Of a DNA stretch of 64,000 nt, positions 31,198-47,529 are shown piece by piece (position 1 is the first letter of the stretch; every line of letters starts with the position of its first letter). The stretch is from Escherichia phage EC_OE_11. The notes under the pieces are model-generated. The model searched no databases, was not told the DNA's origin, and saw only the letters and a program-made list of their open reading frames with translations. Made by a program: the position numbers and the translations under genes. The DNA lies in the sequence record OQ108497.1; one strand, written 5' to 3'.

Positions 31198-31536
31198 ATG
31201 TTTAGTAAAGAAATGAGAGAAGTAATTGCCACTTTGGTAGTTGATCATGGTGTTGAAGTTGAGCGTCACGTTTGGAACGATGAACCTCCTTTCTTCGATT
31301 TGGCATCACGAGCTAAAAGTCATATGCACCTGCTGGAAGACGGTAATGAGTTTGTTCTCCGTATGCGTTATGATCGAGAGTTTCGAATTCCGCTTGACAC
31401 TGAACCAGATGGTGTAGTAATGTGGTTGGCAGAACATTTCGCATACGATGCACTACATGGAAGAAGTTTTGGTAATGAGCGTTGGGATGCCATTTGTCGT
31501 AAGCATAATATTGAACCAGAGTACGGAGTTTTATAA
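31198..31536 (+). CDS. hypothetical protein
   Basis: 112-aa ORF, AGGAGGG SD. Confidence 0.55.
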   Translation: MFSKEMREVIATLVVDHGVEVERHVWNDEPPFFDLASRAKSHMHLLEDGNEFVLRMRYDREFRIPLDTEPDGVVMWLAEHFAYDALHGRSFGNERWDAICRKHNIEPEYGVL

Positions 31537-32444: not shown

Positions 32445-33572
32445 ATGAAATACACGATTTATGGTGATATTGTAAGTGTAAATAAAGATATGGGTGTGGA
32501 ATCTAATTATCTTCCACCTGGATTCTATACTGTTAGTCGTGATCCCCTTGGCAATTATTTTTTAAGCCGTGGTAATCTAACAGGTGTACCGGATGTTCTG
32601 TATGGTGAAACAGAAAAACGAGCAAATCACGTTATCCGTACATTCCATCGCCGGAGTGCACAAGGTAAAAATACAGGTTTGCTTCTGACAGGAACTAAGG
32701 GCAGTGGTAAAACTATGTTAGCCAAGCTCATTAGTCGTGACCTTGTAGAAGAAGGTATTCCAACTATTATGGTTACTCAAGCCTACAGTGATGCTAATTT
32801 CATTGAACTTATTAGCAAGATCACCGACAAAGCAGTGATTATTTTTGACGAGTTTGATAAAGTATATGAGAAGAAACAAGATCAAGAAGCACTTCTCACT
32901 TTGTTAGATGGTACTGGCAGTGGTAATAAACTGTTTATTCTAACTAAAAACAGTGGCTTTATCTCTGAATTCTTTCTAAATCGTCCTAGTCGTGTGTTTT
33001 ATAATTTTAATTATGATAAAATCTCACTAGAAACTATGATTGACTATTTAGATAAAAACCTGGATAACAAAGCACACTTTGATAATTTCCAAAGACTTTG
33101 GGATGTAAGTTTAGAGTTGTCCTTTGATGTGATCCAAGGTATAGTAGAAGAACTTAATTTCTACCCTGATTTATCCTTTAAAGAATGCATCTCTATGATG
33201 GGCGTTTCTTTGGGTGGTGGTAATAAATGGGATATCAGTAGCGTTATTATTAATGGAAAACTTCAGAAAGTTAGCTGGGTATCTAGTTGGCATAACTTTA
33301 CACCTGCAATCTTTTTAGGTGGCTCGTGCACACTAGACGTGTACTTGTCATCTCCAAGTGATGCAGATTCTAAAGAAGCCCTTGCTAATAGCTCTTACGT
33401 GGTTTTTGATGATGAAGGCGATGCTCGAATTCCGTTGAATGCGACAAAAATGAAAGCAGACCTTATCACAGGCGGTAAAATCGTTGTGTTTAGTGATGAT
33501 CCAGAAGATTCTTTCCGTATTGTTCTGGAACCAACTATCACCAATGGTGCAACTTTGGCAAGTGTGTTTTAA
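32445..33572 (+). CDS. AAA+ ATPase (paralog 2)
   Basis: Walker A GTKGSGKT, Walker B IIFDEFDK, FILTKN; collinear with 17558..18718. Confidence 0.7.
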   Translation: MKYTIYGDIVSVNKDMGVESNYLPPGFYTVSRDPLGNYFLSRGNLTGVPDVLYGETEKRANHVIRTFHRRSAQGKNTGLLLTGTKGSGKTMLAKLISRDLVEEGIPTIMVTQAYSDANFIELISKITDKAVIIFDEFDKVYEKKQDQEALLTLLDGTGSGNKLFILTKNSGFISEFFLNRPSRVFYNFNYDKISLETMIDYLDKNLDNKAHFDNFQRLWDVSLELSFDVIQGIVEELNFYPDLSFKECISMMGVSLGGGNKWDISSVIINGKLQKVSWVSSWHNFTPAIFLGGSCTLDVYLSSPSDADSKEALANSSYVVFDDEGDARIPLNATKMKADLITGGKIVVFSDDPEDSFRIVLEPTITNGATLASVF

Positions 33573-33585
33573 GTAAGCCAGCAAA

Positions 33586-33610
33586 TAAAAACCCGCTTCG
33601 GCGGGTTTTC
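33586..33610 (+). terminator. intrinsic terminator
   Basis: AAACCCGC-ttcg-GCGGGTTTTCTTGTAT; identical copy at 60338-60361. Confidence 0.8.
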
Positions 33611-33646
33611 TTGTATTGATGCCAGATTTAATAAAAGGAGTAGTAG

Positions 33647-34819
33647 ATGGTAGCACTAAAATCATGGGAACAATATAAAGAAGAATTAATACCCCTTGCT
33701 AAAAATCACAATATTCAAATCTTGGGTTATGTTGGTGAATGGAAAGGGAACAAGACTAAACTTAAGCTATCTTGCCCTAAACATGGAGAGTGGAACACCA
33801 CGAACATTAATGATTTTAAGAAGGGACGTGGTTGTCCTATCTGTTCTGGTAAGAAGCCGTTAACATGGGAAACAGAATTGCCGATCTTGGAAGAGATAGC
33901 ACAGAAGAGGGGGTATCAGGTGTTAGGGTACGTGGGAGAATGGAAAGGGAATAAAACAAAACTTGATTTGTTGTGTCATTGTGGTAATAAATGGGATACT
34001 ACAAGTATTAACAATTTTAAACGTGGTAGCGGTTGTCCACAATGTAAGAGGGAGAGACAAACAATGTCCGACGATCAACATATTGCAGATTTCTTTTCTA
34101 CAGGGGAATTTAAGGAAGGCACTATCTTCACCAATACAGGGAAACGTAACAAGCGTGATGCAGTATGGATGGTTGAGTGTCCTGTTTGCTCCCATGATGA
34201 ATATGTTCAAGCAGGTGTTTGTGATGGTAAATTTTACTCTGCAGGACATAACCTTAAACAAGGGTATATTCCGTGTCGTTGTGGGAACTATCAGTATACA
34301 GAAGACCAGATCACCTATAGGGTAAAAAAGGAAGTAGAAGGGAAAGGGTATGTCTGGGTAGATTGGATTACCAAACCCTCTTCTATAGGTAAGTTTAAAT
34401 ATCTTTGTCTTGTGCATGGTGAGCAGATAGGGAGTGCTCGTAATTTATTAAGCCTCGGTCAAGGTTGTCCACAGTGTGCTGGTCATAATCAACAGCAATT
34501 ATATATTAATATTGTTAAAGATAATGATATTATAGTTGCTCTTAAGTTTGGCATAGCTAAAGATAGTGACAGGCGATTAAACAATCAAAATAGGCGTAAT
34601 ATGTTTTTTATGGAGCGTATTTGTTTATATGATTTTAGTACAGTGAAACAGTGTAAGGCTGCTGAAAGAGCTATAAAGAAAAAACTAAAAACTGGTATTT
34701 TAACAGCAAGAGAGTTGAAAGATGGTTATACAGAAACAGTAAGTGTTTCTGATTTGGAAAATCTTCAAAAAATTATTACACAATATGGTGGCAAGTTAGT
34801 ATACAGTAAGGAGGTGTAA
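33647..34819 (+). CDS. zinc-ribbon-repeat protein with C-terminal GIY-YIG-like (T5orf172/MUG113-type) domain
   Basis: Two about 45-aa repeats (GYVGEWKGNKTKL..C..G.W.TT.IN.FK.G.GCP.C) plus more CxxC pairs; C-terminal LYINIV...KFGIAKDSDRRL...AERAIKKKL. Confidence 0.45.
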   Translation: MVALKSWEQYKEELIPLAKNHNIQILGYVGEWKGNKTKLKLSCPKHGEWNTTNINDFKKGRGCPICSGKKPLTWETELPILEEIAQKRGYQVLGYVGEWKGNKTKLDLLCHCGNKWDTTSINNFKRGSGCPQCKRERQTMSDDQHIADFFSTGEFKEGTIFTNTGKRNKRDAVWMVECPVCSHDEYVQAGVCDGKFYSAGHNLKQGYIPCRCGNYQYTEDQITYRVKKEVEGKGYVWVDWITKPSSIGKFKYLCLVHGEQIGSARNLLSLGQGCPQCAGHNQQQLYINIVKDNDIIVALKFGIAKDSDRRLNNQNRRNMFFMERICLYDFSTVKQCKAAERAIKKKLKTGILTARELKDGYTETVSVSDLENLQKIITQYGGKLVYSKEV

Positions 34820-35371
34820 ATGCGGATTACTGATAAGTATGTGTTCTTCTTCTCGGCAAAAGATGAATTTAGCAACTGGTATCTATCATCTTTTATTGAA
34901 CCTTTAGCTCCCAAGTATAATAATTCTATTACAAGTTCTGTTGAATTTACTTGTGTGGAACAATATATGATGTGGAGAAAAGCATGTTTGTTTTATGATT
35001 ACAACATTGCATCTTCTATTTTAACCGGAGATCTAAGATATACAGGAGAAAAAGAACAGGCATATTATAAGCGACTAGGTAGATTAGTTAAAGATTACGA
35101 TGAAGCTACTTGGACTTCTTTACGGGAGAAGATTGTCAAGCGTGGTTTGTATCTTAAATACACACAAAATGAAGATCTCAAAAATAAACTTATAGCTTAC
35201 GCAGATAAGGAGTTTGTAGAGGCAAGTCCTTATGATTCTATTTATGGTATCAAAATGGGGATGTGGGATCGGGACGTGGAAAATAAGGATTGTTGGAAAG
35301 GACAAAATCTTTTAGGAAAATGGCATACAGACCTTGCTGTTTATCTAAAATCACAATCTGATATTTCCTGA
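34820..35371 (+). CDS. NADAR-family protein (YbiA-like)
   Basis: FFFSAKDEFSNW, CVEQYMMWRKA, EASPYDSIYGIK, GQNLLGKW align to YbiA motifs. Confidence 0.7.
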   Translation: MRITDKYVFFFSAKDEFSNWYLSSFIEPLAPKYNNSITSSVEFTCVEQYMMWRKACLFYDYNIASSILTGDLRYTGEKEQAYYKRLGRLVKDYDEATWTSLREKIVKRGLYLKYTQNEDLKNKLIAYADKEFVEASPYDSIYGIKMGMWDRDVENKDCWKGQNLLGKWHTDLAVYLKSQSDIS

Positions 35372-35585
35372 TATTTTGAAAATTTTTACTTTTATAAAAA
35401 GGGGTGTGGGTTTCATGTACGGAAATCCACCCTCTGAATAATATATCCAGAGTAAATATTATTCTGTACTCTGTTAATAAAGTATTTAATTTGTTTGTTG
35501 GACTATGGTATCTGATCTTTAAAAGGCATACTATCTCTTAACTACTATTTATAACAGAACAGTAAAATCATTTTTATAAAAAGGA

Positions 35586-35790
35586 CAAAATTATTTAAAG
35601 TTTTTACAGATTTTTGGATACAAATTTTGAAAATGAAAAGTTCAAGTTTGGTCAAAATTATTTAAAGTTTTTGTACGTATTTCTATCCAGATTTTGAAAA
35701 TGAAAACTTCAATTTTTTAAAAATTCCCCAGTTTATTTAAAGTTTTTTTGCCTTTTTCCGTAGAAAAATCAAAAATGAAAAGTTCAATTT
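35586..35790. repeat. 3 tandem copies of about 67-bp AT-rich unit
   Basis: Each unit has AAAATTATTTAAAGTTTTT and ATTTTGAAAATGAAAAGTTCAA. Confidence 0.7.
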
Positions 35791-35811
35791 CGTGTTTTTA
35801 TAGGTGTGCGT

Positions 35812-35925
35812 ATGATAATCATTCTCATTTGTAAATGAGAATCATTATCATTTAATTATGTAAGTGATAATCATTCTCAGTAAGAGAATGAGAATCATTA
35901 GCAAATGAGAATTTTTCTCATTTAG
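35812..35925. promoter_or_regulatory. cluster of Fur-box-like motifs (GATAATCATTCTCATT / AATGAGAATCATTATC)
   Basis: At least 5 units in both orientations resembling Fur consensus GATAATGATAATCATTATC. Confidence 0.5.
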
Positions 35926-35929
35926 AGAA

Positions 35930-36480
35930 TAACGCGCAGGGGTGGTGTTTGTCTCGCGCTCCCGTGTCCCTCGCCATACAATAAGAATAGCATAACCAAC
36001 AACAAAAGCAAGCGATTATTTTTATCTTTACATTTCTTTACAAATTTATTTTAGACGAGCTACCGGCGATCAACCTTCCAACCAGTGCCCCTGGTATGTT
36101 AGCCCCGCCTTTACGCCGTGGGGGTGGCGCTTCCTCTTCTGTATGTAAAACAGTATAAGCCCGATCCCTGGGCTTGTCAAGATTATTTTTTGTTTTCTTG
36201 CCAGGAAAGGACACCTAACCAAAAATACATATCGCCCCGCGCCCCTGGCGGGATCTTGCTTTCCCCGCCGCCACTGCAAGCCCATAAATAACCATCAGCG
36301 AACGGATCAAAATGTTCTATCTCTTCCACCTTATGATCGCCCAGGTTGAGAACGGTTTCAACCTTTAAGCCCGTTGCGCTTGCTACCTGGTGCACCGTGC
36401 CGCCTTGCCAGCCCAATGAGTGCATGAGATGTAAAGGAGTATTTGTCATGGTATCGCCCTTTCTTTGATGTGCGCCCTGG
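35930..36480. other. GC-rich compositional island inside AT-rich non-coding hub
   Basis: Visibly GC-rich versus flanks; only weak ORFs. Confidence 0.5.
36183..36449 (-). CDS. hypothetical protein (88 aa) within GC-rich island; possibly acquired
   Basis: ATG 36449 with AAAGGGCG SD-like; atypical codon composition. Confidence 0.3.
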   Translation of the reverse strand: MTNTPLHLMHSLGWQGGTVHQVASATGLKVETVLNLGDHKVEEIEHFDPFADGYLWACSGGGESKIPPGARGDMYFWLGVLSWQENKK

Positions 36481-36714
36481 TTGGCGCGGTAGAAAGATAA
36501 TAGCCGTTTCCTTTATAGATAGCAAGCAAAAAGAAATGAAAAAAAGATTAAAAAATGGTTGACGTTCCTCACCTGGTAGCGTAGTATTCATCTTGTCGAG
36601 GGGGGCAAGGCACAACGACAATAAACAATAGGCGGGTGCAATGCAGGACGGGCAAAGGTGAGGATCTCCACAATCCACCGTCACAATAACATTACTTATA
36701 AAAGGTTGATAACG

Positions 36715-36810
36715 ATGATCAAGAAAGAAAACAGCTTGACGGTTGGAACGATTAACGCTATCATTCTAGCCGTTCCATTTTGGATTGTAGTAGCGGTTGT
36801 TATTTTCTAA
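36715..36810 (+). CDS. small membrane peptide (31 aa), speculative
   Basis: ATG 36715; single hydrophobic helix; weak SD. Confidence 0.25.
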   Translation: MIKKENSLTVGTINAIILAVPFWIVVAVVIF

Positions 36811-36819
36811 AAAATATTC

Positions 36820-36878
36820 TTGACAACGTTTTTTAATCTGATAAGATGTATCACATAGGGCGGCAATAGTGCCGCTCA
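36820..36878 (+). promoter_or_regulatory. promoter + 5'-leader stem-loop cassette (PeSL-like, type B)
   Basis: TTGACA-16nt-TAAGAT then GCGGC-aatagt-GCCGC hairpin, SD, ATG 36900. Confidence 0.55.
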
Positions 36879-36899
36879 TAACAGAAGAGAGAAATAATC

Positions 36900-37172
36900 A
36901 TGGCATCATATAGCGCATCAATGATCGTAACGGGCATGACTGGTAAACCTATGCGCGGTGGCGGATCTTTCGCTAACATCAATATTGATGGGCGTTTATC
37001 CCTGGATGCAGCGATCACCGTGGCACGGGAAACATTTAAAAAAGAATGTAATTTCAATAAACAAGATTATCTCGGCTTCGTTATTGAAAAAACCGCGCGC
37101 TTTGTTGATTATAAAAGCCCGAAAATGATCGACACTACACTAAAAGCGCAAGATGTAGCATTTTTGCTTTAA
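36900..37172 (+). CDS. hypothetical protein
   Basis: 90 aa. Confidence 0.55.
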   Translation: MASYSASMIVTGMTGKPMRGGGSFANINIDGRLSLDAAITVARETFKKECNFNKQDYLGFVIEKTARFVDYKSPKMIDTTLKAQDVAFLL

Positions 37173-46610: not shown

Positions 46611-46630
46611 AATAATGATAATCATTCTTA
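46611..46630. promoter_or_regulatory. Fur-box-like motif AATAATGATAATCATTCTTA
   Basis: Second copy about 55 bp downstream. Confidence 0.45.
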
Positions 46631-47165: not shown

Positions 47166-47511
47166 TAATGTTTGGAACATTGGCTATAATATAAGCTACA
47201 TATAATAAGCTATTCAATAATAAACATCGTGAATAATGACATTGAAATGAATAATGACACTGATGATCATAATGCGCCACCTTCCAGGGGGCGCTATGTG
47301 AACACAAAGAAATCTTTCTTGTCAAGAAAAATATCACCATTATTGCGCAAAATTATTTATATCTGAATAGATGATTTTTCATACTATTGCCCCTATACAC
47401 TACCTCATTTGTTGCAATGTATCCCCCTATTTGTTGAGCCTATTCTCTTAAAAGCGCAATAAATCAGAATTATCTTGATTTTTAGTGGATTTTATAGTAT
47501 AGAAAATATGC

Positions 47512-47529
47512 AAATGATAATCATTATCA
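47512..47529. promoter_or_regulatory. Fur-box-like motif AAATGATAATCATTATCA
   Basis: Near-consensus Fur-box-like palindrome. Confidence 0.45.

Follow-up and report, generated by a model that had tools for sequence, protein, structure and literature searches.

The gene at positions 33647 to 34819 of the window (the whole 64-kb stretch of DNA analyzed here) probably encodes a member of the T5orf172 homing endonuclease family, a free-standing DNA endonuclease that is directed to specific sequences. The gene is real, and as its architecture has already been described in other phages, it is an ordinary member of a known family. T5orf172 homing endonuclease genes (HEGs) with this architecture have been reported in Netter 2021 (PMC8096241) and Barth 2023 (PMC10448857) and are defined by one or more DNA-binding domains at one terminus, often repeated CapR, DUF723, or DUF4379 domains, with the T5orf172 domain at the other (PMC10448857). 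The features of the gene agree with the description in PMC10448857: its product has repeated CapR-type fingers at one end and T5orf172 at the other, and the gene contains recombining intragenic repeats, with in-frame gain and loss of modules and domain shuffling. We propose that four independently folded CapR-type modules, each holding one Zn through two Cys/His knuckles and separated from the next by a flexible linker, would jointly read an extended DNA site, and that the C-terminal T5orf172 domain, with a GIY-YIG fold in which Lys replaces the second Tyr and Arg and Glu are kept, would cut near the bound site. The gene itself appears to be an insert that directly follows the terminator of an AAA ATPase gene, itself highly conserved. 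In mixed infections, the protein most likely cuts related phage genomes bearing a sensitive site, which could result either in gene conversion of its own region or in exclusion of the competitor, and its specificity would be continually renewed as finger modules are gained, lost, and exchanged. No target site for the endonuclease could be proposed from this analysis.

The open reading frame at 33647..34819 (plus strand) was confirmed to be complete, with an ATG start and 390 amino acids (aa) plus a stop, and is the orthologue of phi92 gp222 and JohannJBalmer bas62_0105. The window belongs to a phi92-like coliphage (Justusliebigvirus) and is 99.3% identical to phage JohannJBalmer. A ribosome-binding site, AAGGAG, was read from the sequence at 33635..33640 (plus strand), 6 nt 5' of the ATG, and an AGGAG motif is likewise annotated for gp222 in the phi92 record. 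Between the upstream AAA ATPase gene and the endonuclease-like gene, a terminator scan and the sequence itself reveal an intrinsic-terminator-like hairpin, AAAACCCGC-TTCG-GCGGGTTTT, followed by a T-rich tail (33588..33609, plus strand), and this hairpin marks the upstream border of the insertion site. The neighbor on the other side is a NADAR gene, and a conserved, repeat-rich noncoding region lies 0.6 kb downstream. The sequence-only reading had linked the gene to mobility near a noncoding hub, and this part of it was not supported: we inspected the repeats and palindromes of the region, found nothing that connects them to the protein, and detected no functional link.

The gene is single copy within the 64-kb window, in which tblastn and two custom HMMs recovered the gene itself and no paralogue. 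The whole protein matches PHROG 681 ("endonuclease") at 2e-86 with its full length covered. Its labels in the databases are inconsistent among records ("hypothetical protein," "endonuclease," and "HNH endonuclease"). Scanning with NCBIfam and PADLOC produced no meaningful match, and the protein therefore has no place among catalogued components of defense systems. We also considered that it might be a tRNA-associated or intron-associated endonuclease, an idea that was dropped because neither a tRNA scan nor Rfam scans revealed an RNA gene at the locus or close to it.

The N-terminal half of the protein is built from repeated zinc-finger modules. CapR (Pfam PF21817; cutoff, 24.2 bits) matches the protein over 4 stretches with an E value of 3e-43 and 146.3 bits, and DUF4379 and DUF723, profiles related to CapR, are also over their cutoffs. 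Module M1 (aa 1 to 70; 33647..33856) has the knuckles C43xxH46 and C63xxC66 and scores 46.7 bits against CapR by itself, and module M2 (aa 71 to 137; 33857..34057) has C110xC112 and C130xxC133 and scores 61.1 bits. Module M3 (aa 138 to 215; 34058..34291), with C178xxC181 and C210xC212, is a long-spacer variant (CxxC-28-CxC) that scores 52.7 bits, and module M4, which together with a short linker to the nuclease domain occupies aa 216 to 282 (34292..34492), has C254xxH257 and C274xxC277 and scores 21.1 bits alone. All four are encoded on the plus strand and have two Cys/His pairs each, for a total of eight knuckles. Of the 16 ligand positions, 11 do not vary among 29 four-module homologues (C63, C66, C110, C130, C133, C181, C212, C254, H257, C274, and C277), including all four in M4, and conservation is 90% or more at 3 others (C43, C178, and C210). 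The Cys/His pairs that the sequence-only reading had seen in the repeats are thus borne out, and the "additional CxxC pairs" that it listed are present as modules 3 and 4.

The similarity among modules is far beyond chance. The local alignment of M1 with M2 scores 186, compared with an average of 25.8 for shuffled sequences (z = 31; 0 of 300 shuffles), and M1 versus M4 and M2 versus M4 give z values of 11 and 5, respectively. The repeats described in the sequence-only reading are therefore real, but they are about 65 to 78 aa long rather than about 45, and there are four modules instead of two. M3 has no significant pairwise similarity to M1, M2, or M4, which raised the question of whether it is a zinc ribbon of another kind. 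Its own match to CapR, at 52.7 bits, led us to conclude that it is CapR type. At the DNA level, M1 and M2 have in common a repeat (D3) of 49 nt that is 78% identical (33715-33763 versus 33916-33964) and is a likely substrate for unequal recombination. A structure model of M1 consists of a helix plus beta-hairpins (elements H7-20, E24-29, and E38-43). The full-length model has confident domains (pLDDT, 88.6), a low pTM of 0.48, and low-confidence linkers at aa 61 to 70 and aa 131 to 140, which together argue for a beads-on-a-string layout. CapR, the capsid repressor of the Vibrio cholerae phage satellite PLE, has an experimentally shown DNA-binding role, and its Cys-to-Ser mutants have been assayed for DNA binding (PMC8096241). 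By analogy with these experiments, the modules would be expected to bind Zn and DNA.

The C-terminal T5orf172 (GIY-YIG superfamily) nuclease domain spans aa 283 to 390 (34493..34816, plus strand) and contains the motifs Y286-I-N, K300-F-G302-I, R310, Q314-N315, E340, and D359-G-Y-T-E363-T. A T5orf172/MUG113-like C terminus had been recognized in the sequence-only reading, and profile searches agree: PF10544 (T5orf172; GIY-YIG clan) matches marginally, with 21.4 bits for the whole protein and 23.6 bits for the domain alone against a cutoff of 20, and MUG113 is under its cutoff. Among 36 diverse family members, T5orf172 is matched by 16, MUG113 by 10, and GIY-YIG by 2. G302, R310, E340, D359, G360, and E363 are invariant in 36 sequences whose identity goes down to 14%, and R310, E340, and E363 are invariant also in the 29 full-length homologues. 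The sequence-only reading had let its proposal depend on GIY-YIG or T5orf172 similarity and on conserved catalytic residues, and the Pfam match and the invariant Arg and Glu provide these.

The nuclease domain is modeled with a pLDDT of 97, and in the model it adopts the GIY-YIG alpha/beta fold, with the canonical second Tyr and helix-1 His replaced by K300 and Q314. Comparisons with known structures and enzymes serve as consistency checks and not as proof. The top match in a profile search of PDB sequences was the GIY-YIG protein 1zg2 (UPF0213), at a nonsignificant E value of 0.53, and this alignment, itself not significant, places E340 on the conserved Glu of the UPF0213 protein. Foldseek against the PDB ranked SLX1/HIGLE first (E = 0.4, not significant), and hhalign of the family profile with I-TevI (approximate query sequence) gave a weak alignment of 16 columns (E = 0.097) that pairs G302 with G19 and R310 with R27. 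ICP1 ORF130/tcgB, annotated as a "putative homing endonuclease," shares 44% identity with the domain (E = 1e-17). The family HMM also detects phage T5 p137 (2e-21), and the domain is present in 333 phage records from Escherichia, Vibrio, Klebsiella, Salmonella, and Pectobacterium phages; some genomes have several copies of it. Taken together, the T5orf172 match, the identity to tcgB, and the CapR-type fingers support, at the level of sequence, the earlier suggestion of a DNA-binding nuclease or homing-endonuclease-like factor. Cleavage by a T5orf172 protein has been shown for ICP1 Odn (Gp88), the origin-directed nuclease, in which E180A abolishes cleavage (Barth 2021, PMC8263062). Odn is the only T5orf172 protein for which both cleavage and a catalytic-Glu mutant have been demonstrated (PMC8263062). 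By analogy with Odn and with GIY-YIG enzymes, the domain analyzed here would be an active nuclease, and one of its invariant Glu residues (E340 or E363) is presumably equivalent to Odn E180.

The gene is found at the same site in every Justusliebigvirus record (~55) and also in phAPEC8, phiWec179, and PsgM04F; the Phapecoctavirus genomes examined are gene positive. phiWec179 has, in addition, a second, divergent copy on the opposite strand. Klebsiella phage KP2025 and IMG/VR contig 3300030441_000047 have the orthologous ATPase but lack the gene downstream of it. In these two lineages the ATPase is 74 to 75% identical, the ATPase-terminator junction is kept, and an equivalent hairpin lies directly 3' of the ATPase. 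This picture of presence and absence covers 14 loci plus BLAST counts, and the search for related loci by the ATPase protein alone gave 4 loci. Insertion polymorphism, which the sequence-only reading had proposed to look for in relatives, exists between lineages (the gene is absent from KP2025-like phages) but not within the genus, as the gene is present in every Justusliebigvirus examined. Because all ~55 records carry the gene at the same site, there is no HEG-minus allele inside the genus to home into. That the gene is both fixed and still conserved suggests that it does something useful for the phage and is not purely selfish.

Module number is polymorphic within Justusliebigvirus, in which alleles with 3, 4, and 5 modules coexist, and homologue lengths cluster at ~327, 395, and 467 aa. 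EmilieFrey has an M1/M2 fusion, PaulScherrer has one extra M1-type module, and modules are always gained or lost in frame. Within the genus, the zinc-finger half is 52 to 92% identical at the DNA level, with repeat-sized indels, versus 96 to 100% for the flanks, and its dS reaches 0.91 compared with 0.11 for the ATPase. In phi92, M3 and M4 are replaced (42 and 47% identity to the window) beside a 95%-identical nuclease, and the M3 and M4 modules of phAPEC8, which is in another genus, are 75 and 70% identical to those of the window. The difference in dS and the fact that the phAPEC8 modules are nearer than those of phi92 indicate that some of the zinc-finger modules were imported. The nuclease half, with a dN/dS of 0.13 to 0.47, is under purifying selection. 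For the gene, dN/dS is 0.13 to 0.48, against 0.01 to 0.05 for neighboring genes, and it is well under 1 in both halves.

The higher dN/dS relative to the neighbors is what would be expected of a decaying remnant of a formerly active homing endonuclease that was fixed by drift and is now functionless, and homing endonuclease life-cycle theory foresees such decay once fixation has occurred. We regard this as very unlikely, since the relatives examined have intact, full-length open reading frames with conserved Zn ligands and invariant catalytic-type residues, dN/dS stays well below 1, and every gain or loss of a module has kept the frame. The same selection data bear on the possibility that the protein is mainly a DNA-binding transcriptional regulator, either CapR-like or bifunctional like I-TevI, that acts on a phage promoter or operator (e.g., in the downstream noncoding stretch) and whose nuclease is vestigial or secondary. 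PLE CapR is a repressor made from the same zinc-finger domain (PMC8096241), I-TevI combines repressor and endonuclease functions (as discussed in PMC10448857), and the gene is fixed in a genus in which the repeat-rich region downstream is highly conserved. Nevertheless, a primarily regulatory role seems improbable to us: even very divergent relatives keep the nuclease-type residues unchanged, in a domain that is under purifying selection, a conserved phage promoter would predict a conserved DNA-binding half rather than the hypervariable one observed, and no link to the noncoding region was found.

A further alternative is that the gene encodes a domesticated arms-race nuclease similar to Odn, fixed because it destroys a parasite or competitor (a satellite, plasmid, prophage, or host element), with hypervariable fingers that track the target. 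The gene is fixed and syntenic over two genera, with a hypervariable DNA-binding half and a conserved nuclease; the same phage group (Inny, Muut, and Mt1B1_P17) has separate RepA_N-T5orf172 genes that have been proposed to encode anti-satellite nucleases (PMC10448857); and Odn shows that T5orf172 nucleases can be co-opted in such a way (PMC8263062). However, the zinc-finger half (33647-34490) had no blastn match in any of 5,426 complete E. coli genomes, and in 72,556 plasmids tblastn found nothing beyond weak partial matches (≤36% identity) from Bacillus, Cupriavidus, and similar nonenterobacterial hosts. Moreover, the DNA-binding half is of the type native to T5orf172 HEGs and is not a captured foreign domain. 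We therefore give this alternative a small share of the probability, and the T5orf172 homing endonuclease remains our preferred reading. An equally improbable reading is that the protein is not just a selfish homing element but a fixed, phage-beneficial "programmable" nuclease, in which tandem CapR modules would form a combinatorial code of a few base pairs per module, re-assorted by duplication, loss, and cross-genus exchange so as to retarget competitors or parasites in coinfection. If this were true, the 3-, 4-, and 5-module alleles of the one genus would amount to a naturally occurring library of specificities and might offer a new scaffold for designer nucleases.

The importance of these observations is modest. 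They extend the T5orf172/CapR homing endonuclease family, recently described in the Vibrio phage ICP1, to an entire subfamily of large coliphages (the phi92- and phAPEC8-like phages, some of which belong to the BASEL collection and serve as laboratory models), and they correct an inconsistent database annotation. They also describe a natural experiment, in which genomes that are otherwise ~98% identical have 3-, 4-, or 5-module alleles and exchanged modules next to a constant nuclease domain. Two questions, how CapR fingers read DNA and whether such fixed endonucleases bring about exclusion between phages, are therefore directly testable in an easy E. coli system.

The nearest known systems are the ICP1 T5orf172 HEGs with CapR-homology domains, which are Gp130/TcgB, Gp53, Gp121, Gp165, and Gp174 (PMC8096241; PMC10448857), and whose homing "has not been experimentally verified" (PMC10448857). 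As in the window protein, CapR-type zinc fingers are repeated at the N terminus and T5orf172 is at the C terminus. Gp130 and the window protein are close in length (396 and 390 aa), are 38% identical over 163 aa by BLASTP (E = 4e-26), and match Pfam T5orf172 marginally in both cases (20.3 and 21.4 bits), although published work accepts Gp130 as a T5orf172 protein. In ICP1 gp174/gp174* (PMC10448857), as in the family of the window gene, intragenic repeat recombination alters the number of modules. The systems differ in phage lineage (an E. coli Justusliebigvirus versus a Vibrio Mohonavirus) and in location, with Gp130 adjoining the terminase and the window gene sitting between the AAA ATPase and NADAR genes. 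They also differ in distribution: the ICP1 HEGs are multicopy and variably present between isolates, whereas the window gene is single copy in the 64-kb window and has one fixed site genus-wide.

PLE CapR shares its zinc-finger family (PF21817) with the window protein, and M3 has the CxxC...CxC arrangement of CapR (PMC8096241). CapR is a 15.5-kDa, single-domain repressor without a nuclease, in contrast to the four modules and conserved nuclease domain found here, and the complete T5orf172 domain at aa 283 to 390 led us to reject a CapR-type, stand-alone repressor. Odn and the window protein both have a C-terminal T5orf172 domain with a conserved Arg and Glu and a helix 1 that lacks the His/Tyr. 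The DNA-binding half of Odn is a RepA_N domain captured from the satellite that it attacks, whereas that of the window protein consists of CapR zinc fingers, for which the E. coli genomes searched contain no homologue. The GIY-YIG enzymes of T4 (I-TevI and the Seg proteins) are similarly modular and laid out like beads on a string, in that a nuclease of the GIY-YIG fold is joined to DNA-binding modules, a zinc finger among them, and T4 GIY-YIG homing endonuclease genes, like the window gene, are free-standing and inserted between conserved phage genes. The order of domains is reversed relative to I-TevI, in which the nuclease is N-terminal, and the canonical YIG Tyr and His of the T4 enzymes are Lys and Gln in the window protein. 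For DNA recognition, I-TevI uses a minor-groove helix and a helix-turn-helix, and the window protein has several tandem zinc fingers in their place.

The gene analyzed here occupies positions 33647 to 34819 on the plus strand, exactly the coordinates given in the sequence-only reading; the ORF listing gives it an ATG start and 390 aa, and the start codon is preceded, at a distance of 6 nt, by the ribosome-binding site AAGGAG. The closest relative of the window is Escherichia phage JohannJBalmer (BASEL Bas62), which shares 99.3% identity with it over the 3 kb surrounding the gene; ~55 other phi92-like phages (Justusliebigvirus, Stephanstirmvirinae) share 93 to 99% over these 3 kb. The gene is the counterpart of bas62_0105 and phi92 gp222. 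GenBank records label it "hypothetical protein" and their RefSeq versions "endonuclease," and PHROG 681 ("endonuclease") covers the full-length protein (2e-86). Upstream is a gene for an AAA-type ATPase (32445 to 33572; PHROG 2376), in which a domain search detected nothing beyond the AAA/P-loop domain. Database labels for this ATPase conflict ("FtsH-like protease," "ATPase or Zn metalloprotease," and "replicative helicase"). A terminator hairpin (33588 to 33609) separates the two genes, and the gene under study starts 37 nt past it. Downstream, a NADAR/YbiA-like gene (34820 to 35371; Pfam NADAR, 2e-36; TIGR02464, 1e-31) abuts the endonuclease stop codon with zero gap. Further matches of the NADAR gene are to PDC-M42C, a candidate defence protein in PADLOC (2e-34), and, weakly, to an NCBIfam "NADAR family anti-phage protein," and its product may be a counter-defence enzyme that removes ADP-ribose.

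The N-terminal 282 aa contain eight Cys/His knuckles (C43xxH46, C63xxC66, C110xC112, C130xxC133, C178xxC181, C210xC212, C254xxH257, and C274xxC277) and were split into modules M1 (aa 1 to 70), M2 (71 to 137), M3 (138 to 215), and M4 (216 to 282). In pairwise local alignments with 300 shuffles, M1/M2 gave z = 31, M1/M4 gave z = 11, and M2/M4 gave z = 5, while M3 had no pairwise similarity to the other three. The Pfam CapR homology domain PF21817 matches four stretches of the protein (E = 3e-43), and every module matches it when scanned singly (M1, 46.7 bits; M2, 61.1 bits; M3, 52.7 bits; M4, 21.1 bits). Therefore, what had been described as two repeats of about 45 aa plus additional CxxC pairs is indeed repetitive, but consists of four modules of ~65 to 78 aa, all belonging to a single zinc-finger family. 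Aligning 29 four-module homologues (33 to 97% identical) showed the ligands C63, C66, C110, C130, C133, C181, C212, C254, H257, C274, and C277 to be invariant and C43, C178, and C210 to be ≥90% conserved.

The C-terminal segment had been read as T5orf172/MUG113-like. The T5orf172 part of this assignment holds, with PF10544 scores of 21.4 bits for the whole protein and 23.6 bits for the C-terminal segment alone (cut-off, 20), but MUG113 scores below its Pfam cut-off. Because the T5orf172 score is marginal, the assignment was tested in several independent ways. A search of 5.8 billion proteins found 157 homologues, in which the C-terminal ~110 aa are readily alignable. In 36 sequences filtered to <80% identity (protein numbering = alignment position + 280), G302, R310, E340, D359, G360, and E363 are invariant and K300, I303, and T364 show ≥90% conservation; when these 36 family members were scanned singly, 16 matched T5orf172, 10 matched MUG113, and 2 matched GIY-YIG. 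By tblastn, the nuclease domain (aa 283 to 390) was found in 333 of 50,697 phage records, including ICP1 ORF130 ("tcgB: putative homing endonuclease"; 44% identity, E = 1e-17) and phage T5 p137 (E = 5e-6). Full-length ICP1 Gp130 is 38% identical over 163 aa (BLASTP, E = 4e-26), with a second match within a zinc-finger module. Gp130 itself scores just 20.3 bits on PF10544 and is among the proteins used to define the CapR/T5orf172 homing endonuclease gene (HEG) family (PMC8096241, PMC10448857).

The AlphaFold2 model of the nuclease domain, built on the homologue alignment (pLDDT, 97.1; pTM, 0.89), is beta-beta-alpha-beta-alpha-alpha-beta. In its structural ranking, UPF0213, I-TevI, a GIY-YIG restriction enzyme, UvrC, and Eco29kI occupy lower places, and the full-length model gave the same ranking. 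Three weaker checks agree in direction, though none is significant by itself. The top PDB sequence-profile match was the GIY-YIG protein 1zg2 (E = 0.53), the first Foldseek match was SLX1/HIGLE (E = 0.4), and an hhalign comparison with I-TevI (E = 0.097) placed L299-Q314 onto I-TevI V16-H31, pairing G302 with G19, R310 with R27, K300 with Y17, and Q314 with H31.

The upstream ATPase, which is extremely constrained, shows ≥95% identity in 55 records, in contrast to the endonuclease gene, which is 95 to 99% identical in 16 records, 90 to 95% in 4, and 80 to 90% in 36. In a sliding identity comparison with JohannJBalmer, PaulScherrer, EmilieFrey, and phi92, both flanks are 96 to 100% identical, the zinc-finger half (33616 to 34458) is 52 to 92% identical with repeat-sized gaps, and the nuclease half (34459 to 34818) is 90 to 97% identical. 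By the Nei-Gojobori method, dN/dS is 0.01 to 0.02 for the ATPase (dS, 0.05 to 0.11), 0.03 to 0.05 for the NADAR gene (0.16 versus JohannJBalmer, from 5 substitutions), 0.13 to 0.47 for the nuclease domain, and 0.34 to 0.48 for the zinc-finger half (dS up to 0.91, dN up to 0.31). A gene in decay is disfavoured, since the ORFs are intact and constrained, and so is a purely regulatory role, given that the catalytic-type residues are invariant and the binding half is hypervariable.

Since dS is raised in the zinc-finger half, its variation was for the most part brought in by recombination rather than built up in place, and module mapping across relatives gives a direct view of this imported variation. 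The PaulScherrer allele has an extra M1-type module (467 aa), and the EmilieFrey allele has one M1/M2 hybrid (325 aa). The phi92 nuclease is 95% identical and its adjoining M3/M4 just 42 to 47%; in phAPEC8, which is of another genus (ATPase, 64% identical), M3/M4 are 75/70% and the nuclease 49% identical. M1 and M2 share a 49-nt segment (33715 to 33763 and 33916 to 33964; 78% identical) that is a plausible substrate for unequal exchanges. JohannJBalmer is identical to the window across the ATPase and the entire zinc-finger half, and falls to 93 to 97% at 34459 to 34818; divergence that begins exactly at the start of the nuclease domain puts a recombination breakpoint where the two domains join. 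A second drop in the same comparison covers 35059 to 35657, which is the 3' end of the NADAR gene plus the next spacer. Separately, a 112-aa gene at 31198 to 31536 is a mosaic patch, 100% identical to EmilieFrey and 64 to 80% to JohannJBalmer, PaulScherrer, and phi92, flanked on each side by DNA that is ~99% identical in all four relatives.

Every Justusliebigvirus record carries the gene at this site, and phAPEC8, phiWec179, and Pseudomonas phage PsgM04F have it too. Two lineages, represented by Klebsiella phage KP2025 and an IMG/VR contig of 149 kb, lack it; in both, the ATPase (74 to 75% protein identity) is followed by the same type of terminator hairpin and then by an unrelated gene. Thus, the gene is sporadic among lineages and fixed inside the genus, and the insertion polymorphism looked for in relatives exists between lineages but not within Justusliebigvirus. 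Further copies were also found. In phage phiWec179, another CapR-T5orf172 gene, divergent and on the opposite strand, lies 3.5 kb upstream of the syntenic one (retrieved locus L007, 160 to 1137, minus strand; 35% identity to the window protein in the C-terminal 170 aa; family HMM, 3e-28). T5p137 (retrieved locus L010, 358 to 1170; 270 aa, "hypothetical"), directly 5' of the gene for tail protein pb2, matches both the nuclease-domain HMM (2e-21) and the zinc-finger module HMM (1.5e-4), so T5 itself has a small protein built to this architecture. The same endonuclease locus occurs in four ~146- to 151-kb records named "Campylobacter phage" A145, A150, B15, and C3 (MG065639, MG065645, MG065650, and MG065656; host given as Campylobacter jejuni), one of which is 98% identical to the window ATPase gene; these look like phi92/phAPEC8-like coliphages whose host label is doubtful.

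The gene had also been tied to a nearby non-coding hub, but we found no link between the stretch at 35400 to 36900, 3' of the NADAR gene, and the endonuclease. This stretch has no ORF of >90 aa, a G+C content of 0.43 (versus ~0.37), and 99 to 100% identity among the four related phages, above that of neighbouring genes. It contains three AT-rich direct repeats of ~70 nt (35570 to 35790) and a palindrome cluster (35810 to 35924), yielded no family or tRNA in Rfam and tRNA searches, and could be an origin or regulatory hub. A search for the E. coli Fur-box consensus GATAATGATAATCATTATC, allowing ≤3 mismatches, gave 5 matches, versus 0.03 expected from shuffles. Among them are 35831 to 35849, 35884 to 35902, 46611 to 46629, and 47510 to 47528, and they suggest that several phage intergenic sites are under iron/Fur-responsive control or titrate Fur.

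The protein's domain composition, its fold, its conserved residues, and the way it has evolved agree with the earlier proposal of a DNA-binding nuclease or homing-endonuclease-like factor, and the best-supported reading makes it a T5orf172-family HEG product that cuts DNA in a sequence-directed way. By analogy with CapR, Odn, and GIY-YIG enzymes, it would bind zinc and DNA, cleave, and home: the four zinc fingers would place the GIY-YIG-type catalytic domain on DNA, the gene would act as a free-standing insert behind the terminator, and module exchange would reshuffle specificity. Fixation in the genus together with a diversified recognition half suggests that new specificities are still being selected, e.g., for exclusion between co-infecting relatives, over simple invasion of empty sites. 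An anti-satellite nuclease like Odn, the origin-directed nuclease of ICP1, is an attractive alternative, but the DNA-binding half has no homologue in 5,426 E. coli genomes, and a plasmid search with it gave only weak, distant matches.

As a T5orf172 HEG, the gene fits the published description in all features that can be computed. The Vibrio cholerae satellite repressor CapR is related to the N-terminal domains found in ICP1 proteins with T5orf172 at the other terminus, which were proposed to be homing endonucleases (Netter et al. 2021, PMC8096241). A survey of 229 T5orf172 HEGs (Barth et al. 2023, PMC10448857) found zinc fingers of the CapR, DUF723, or DUF4379 type in 87%, often as tandem repeats that recombine, and also described "beads on a string" modularity. 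As far as a term search shows, the window gene is absent from the supplements of that survey, in which Inny, Muut, and Mt1B1_P17 are included for another gene (RepA_N-T5orf172). The M3 arrangement, CxxC-(28)-CxC, is close to the CxxC-(24-26)-CxC of CapR, in which Cys-to-Ser mutants were used to probe the role of the motif in DNA binding (PMC8096241). The T5orf172 protein Odn cleaves in vitro, and E180A abolishes cleavage (Barth et al. 2021, PMC8263062); the His/Tyr of helix 1 is missing from Odn but the catalytic Arg and Glu are retained, which is consistent with the Tyr-to-Lys and His-to-Gln replacements in the window protein. The gene belongs to the kind described in 2021 to 2023 and covered by current Pfam and PHROG models.
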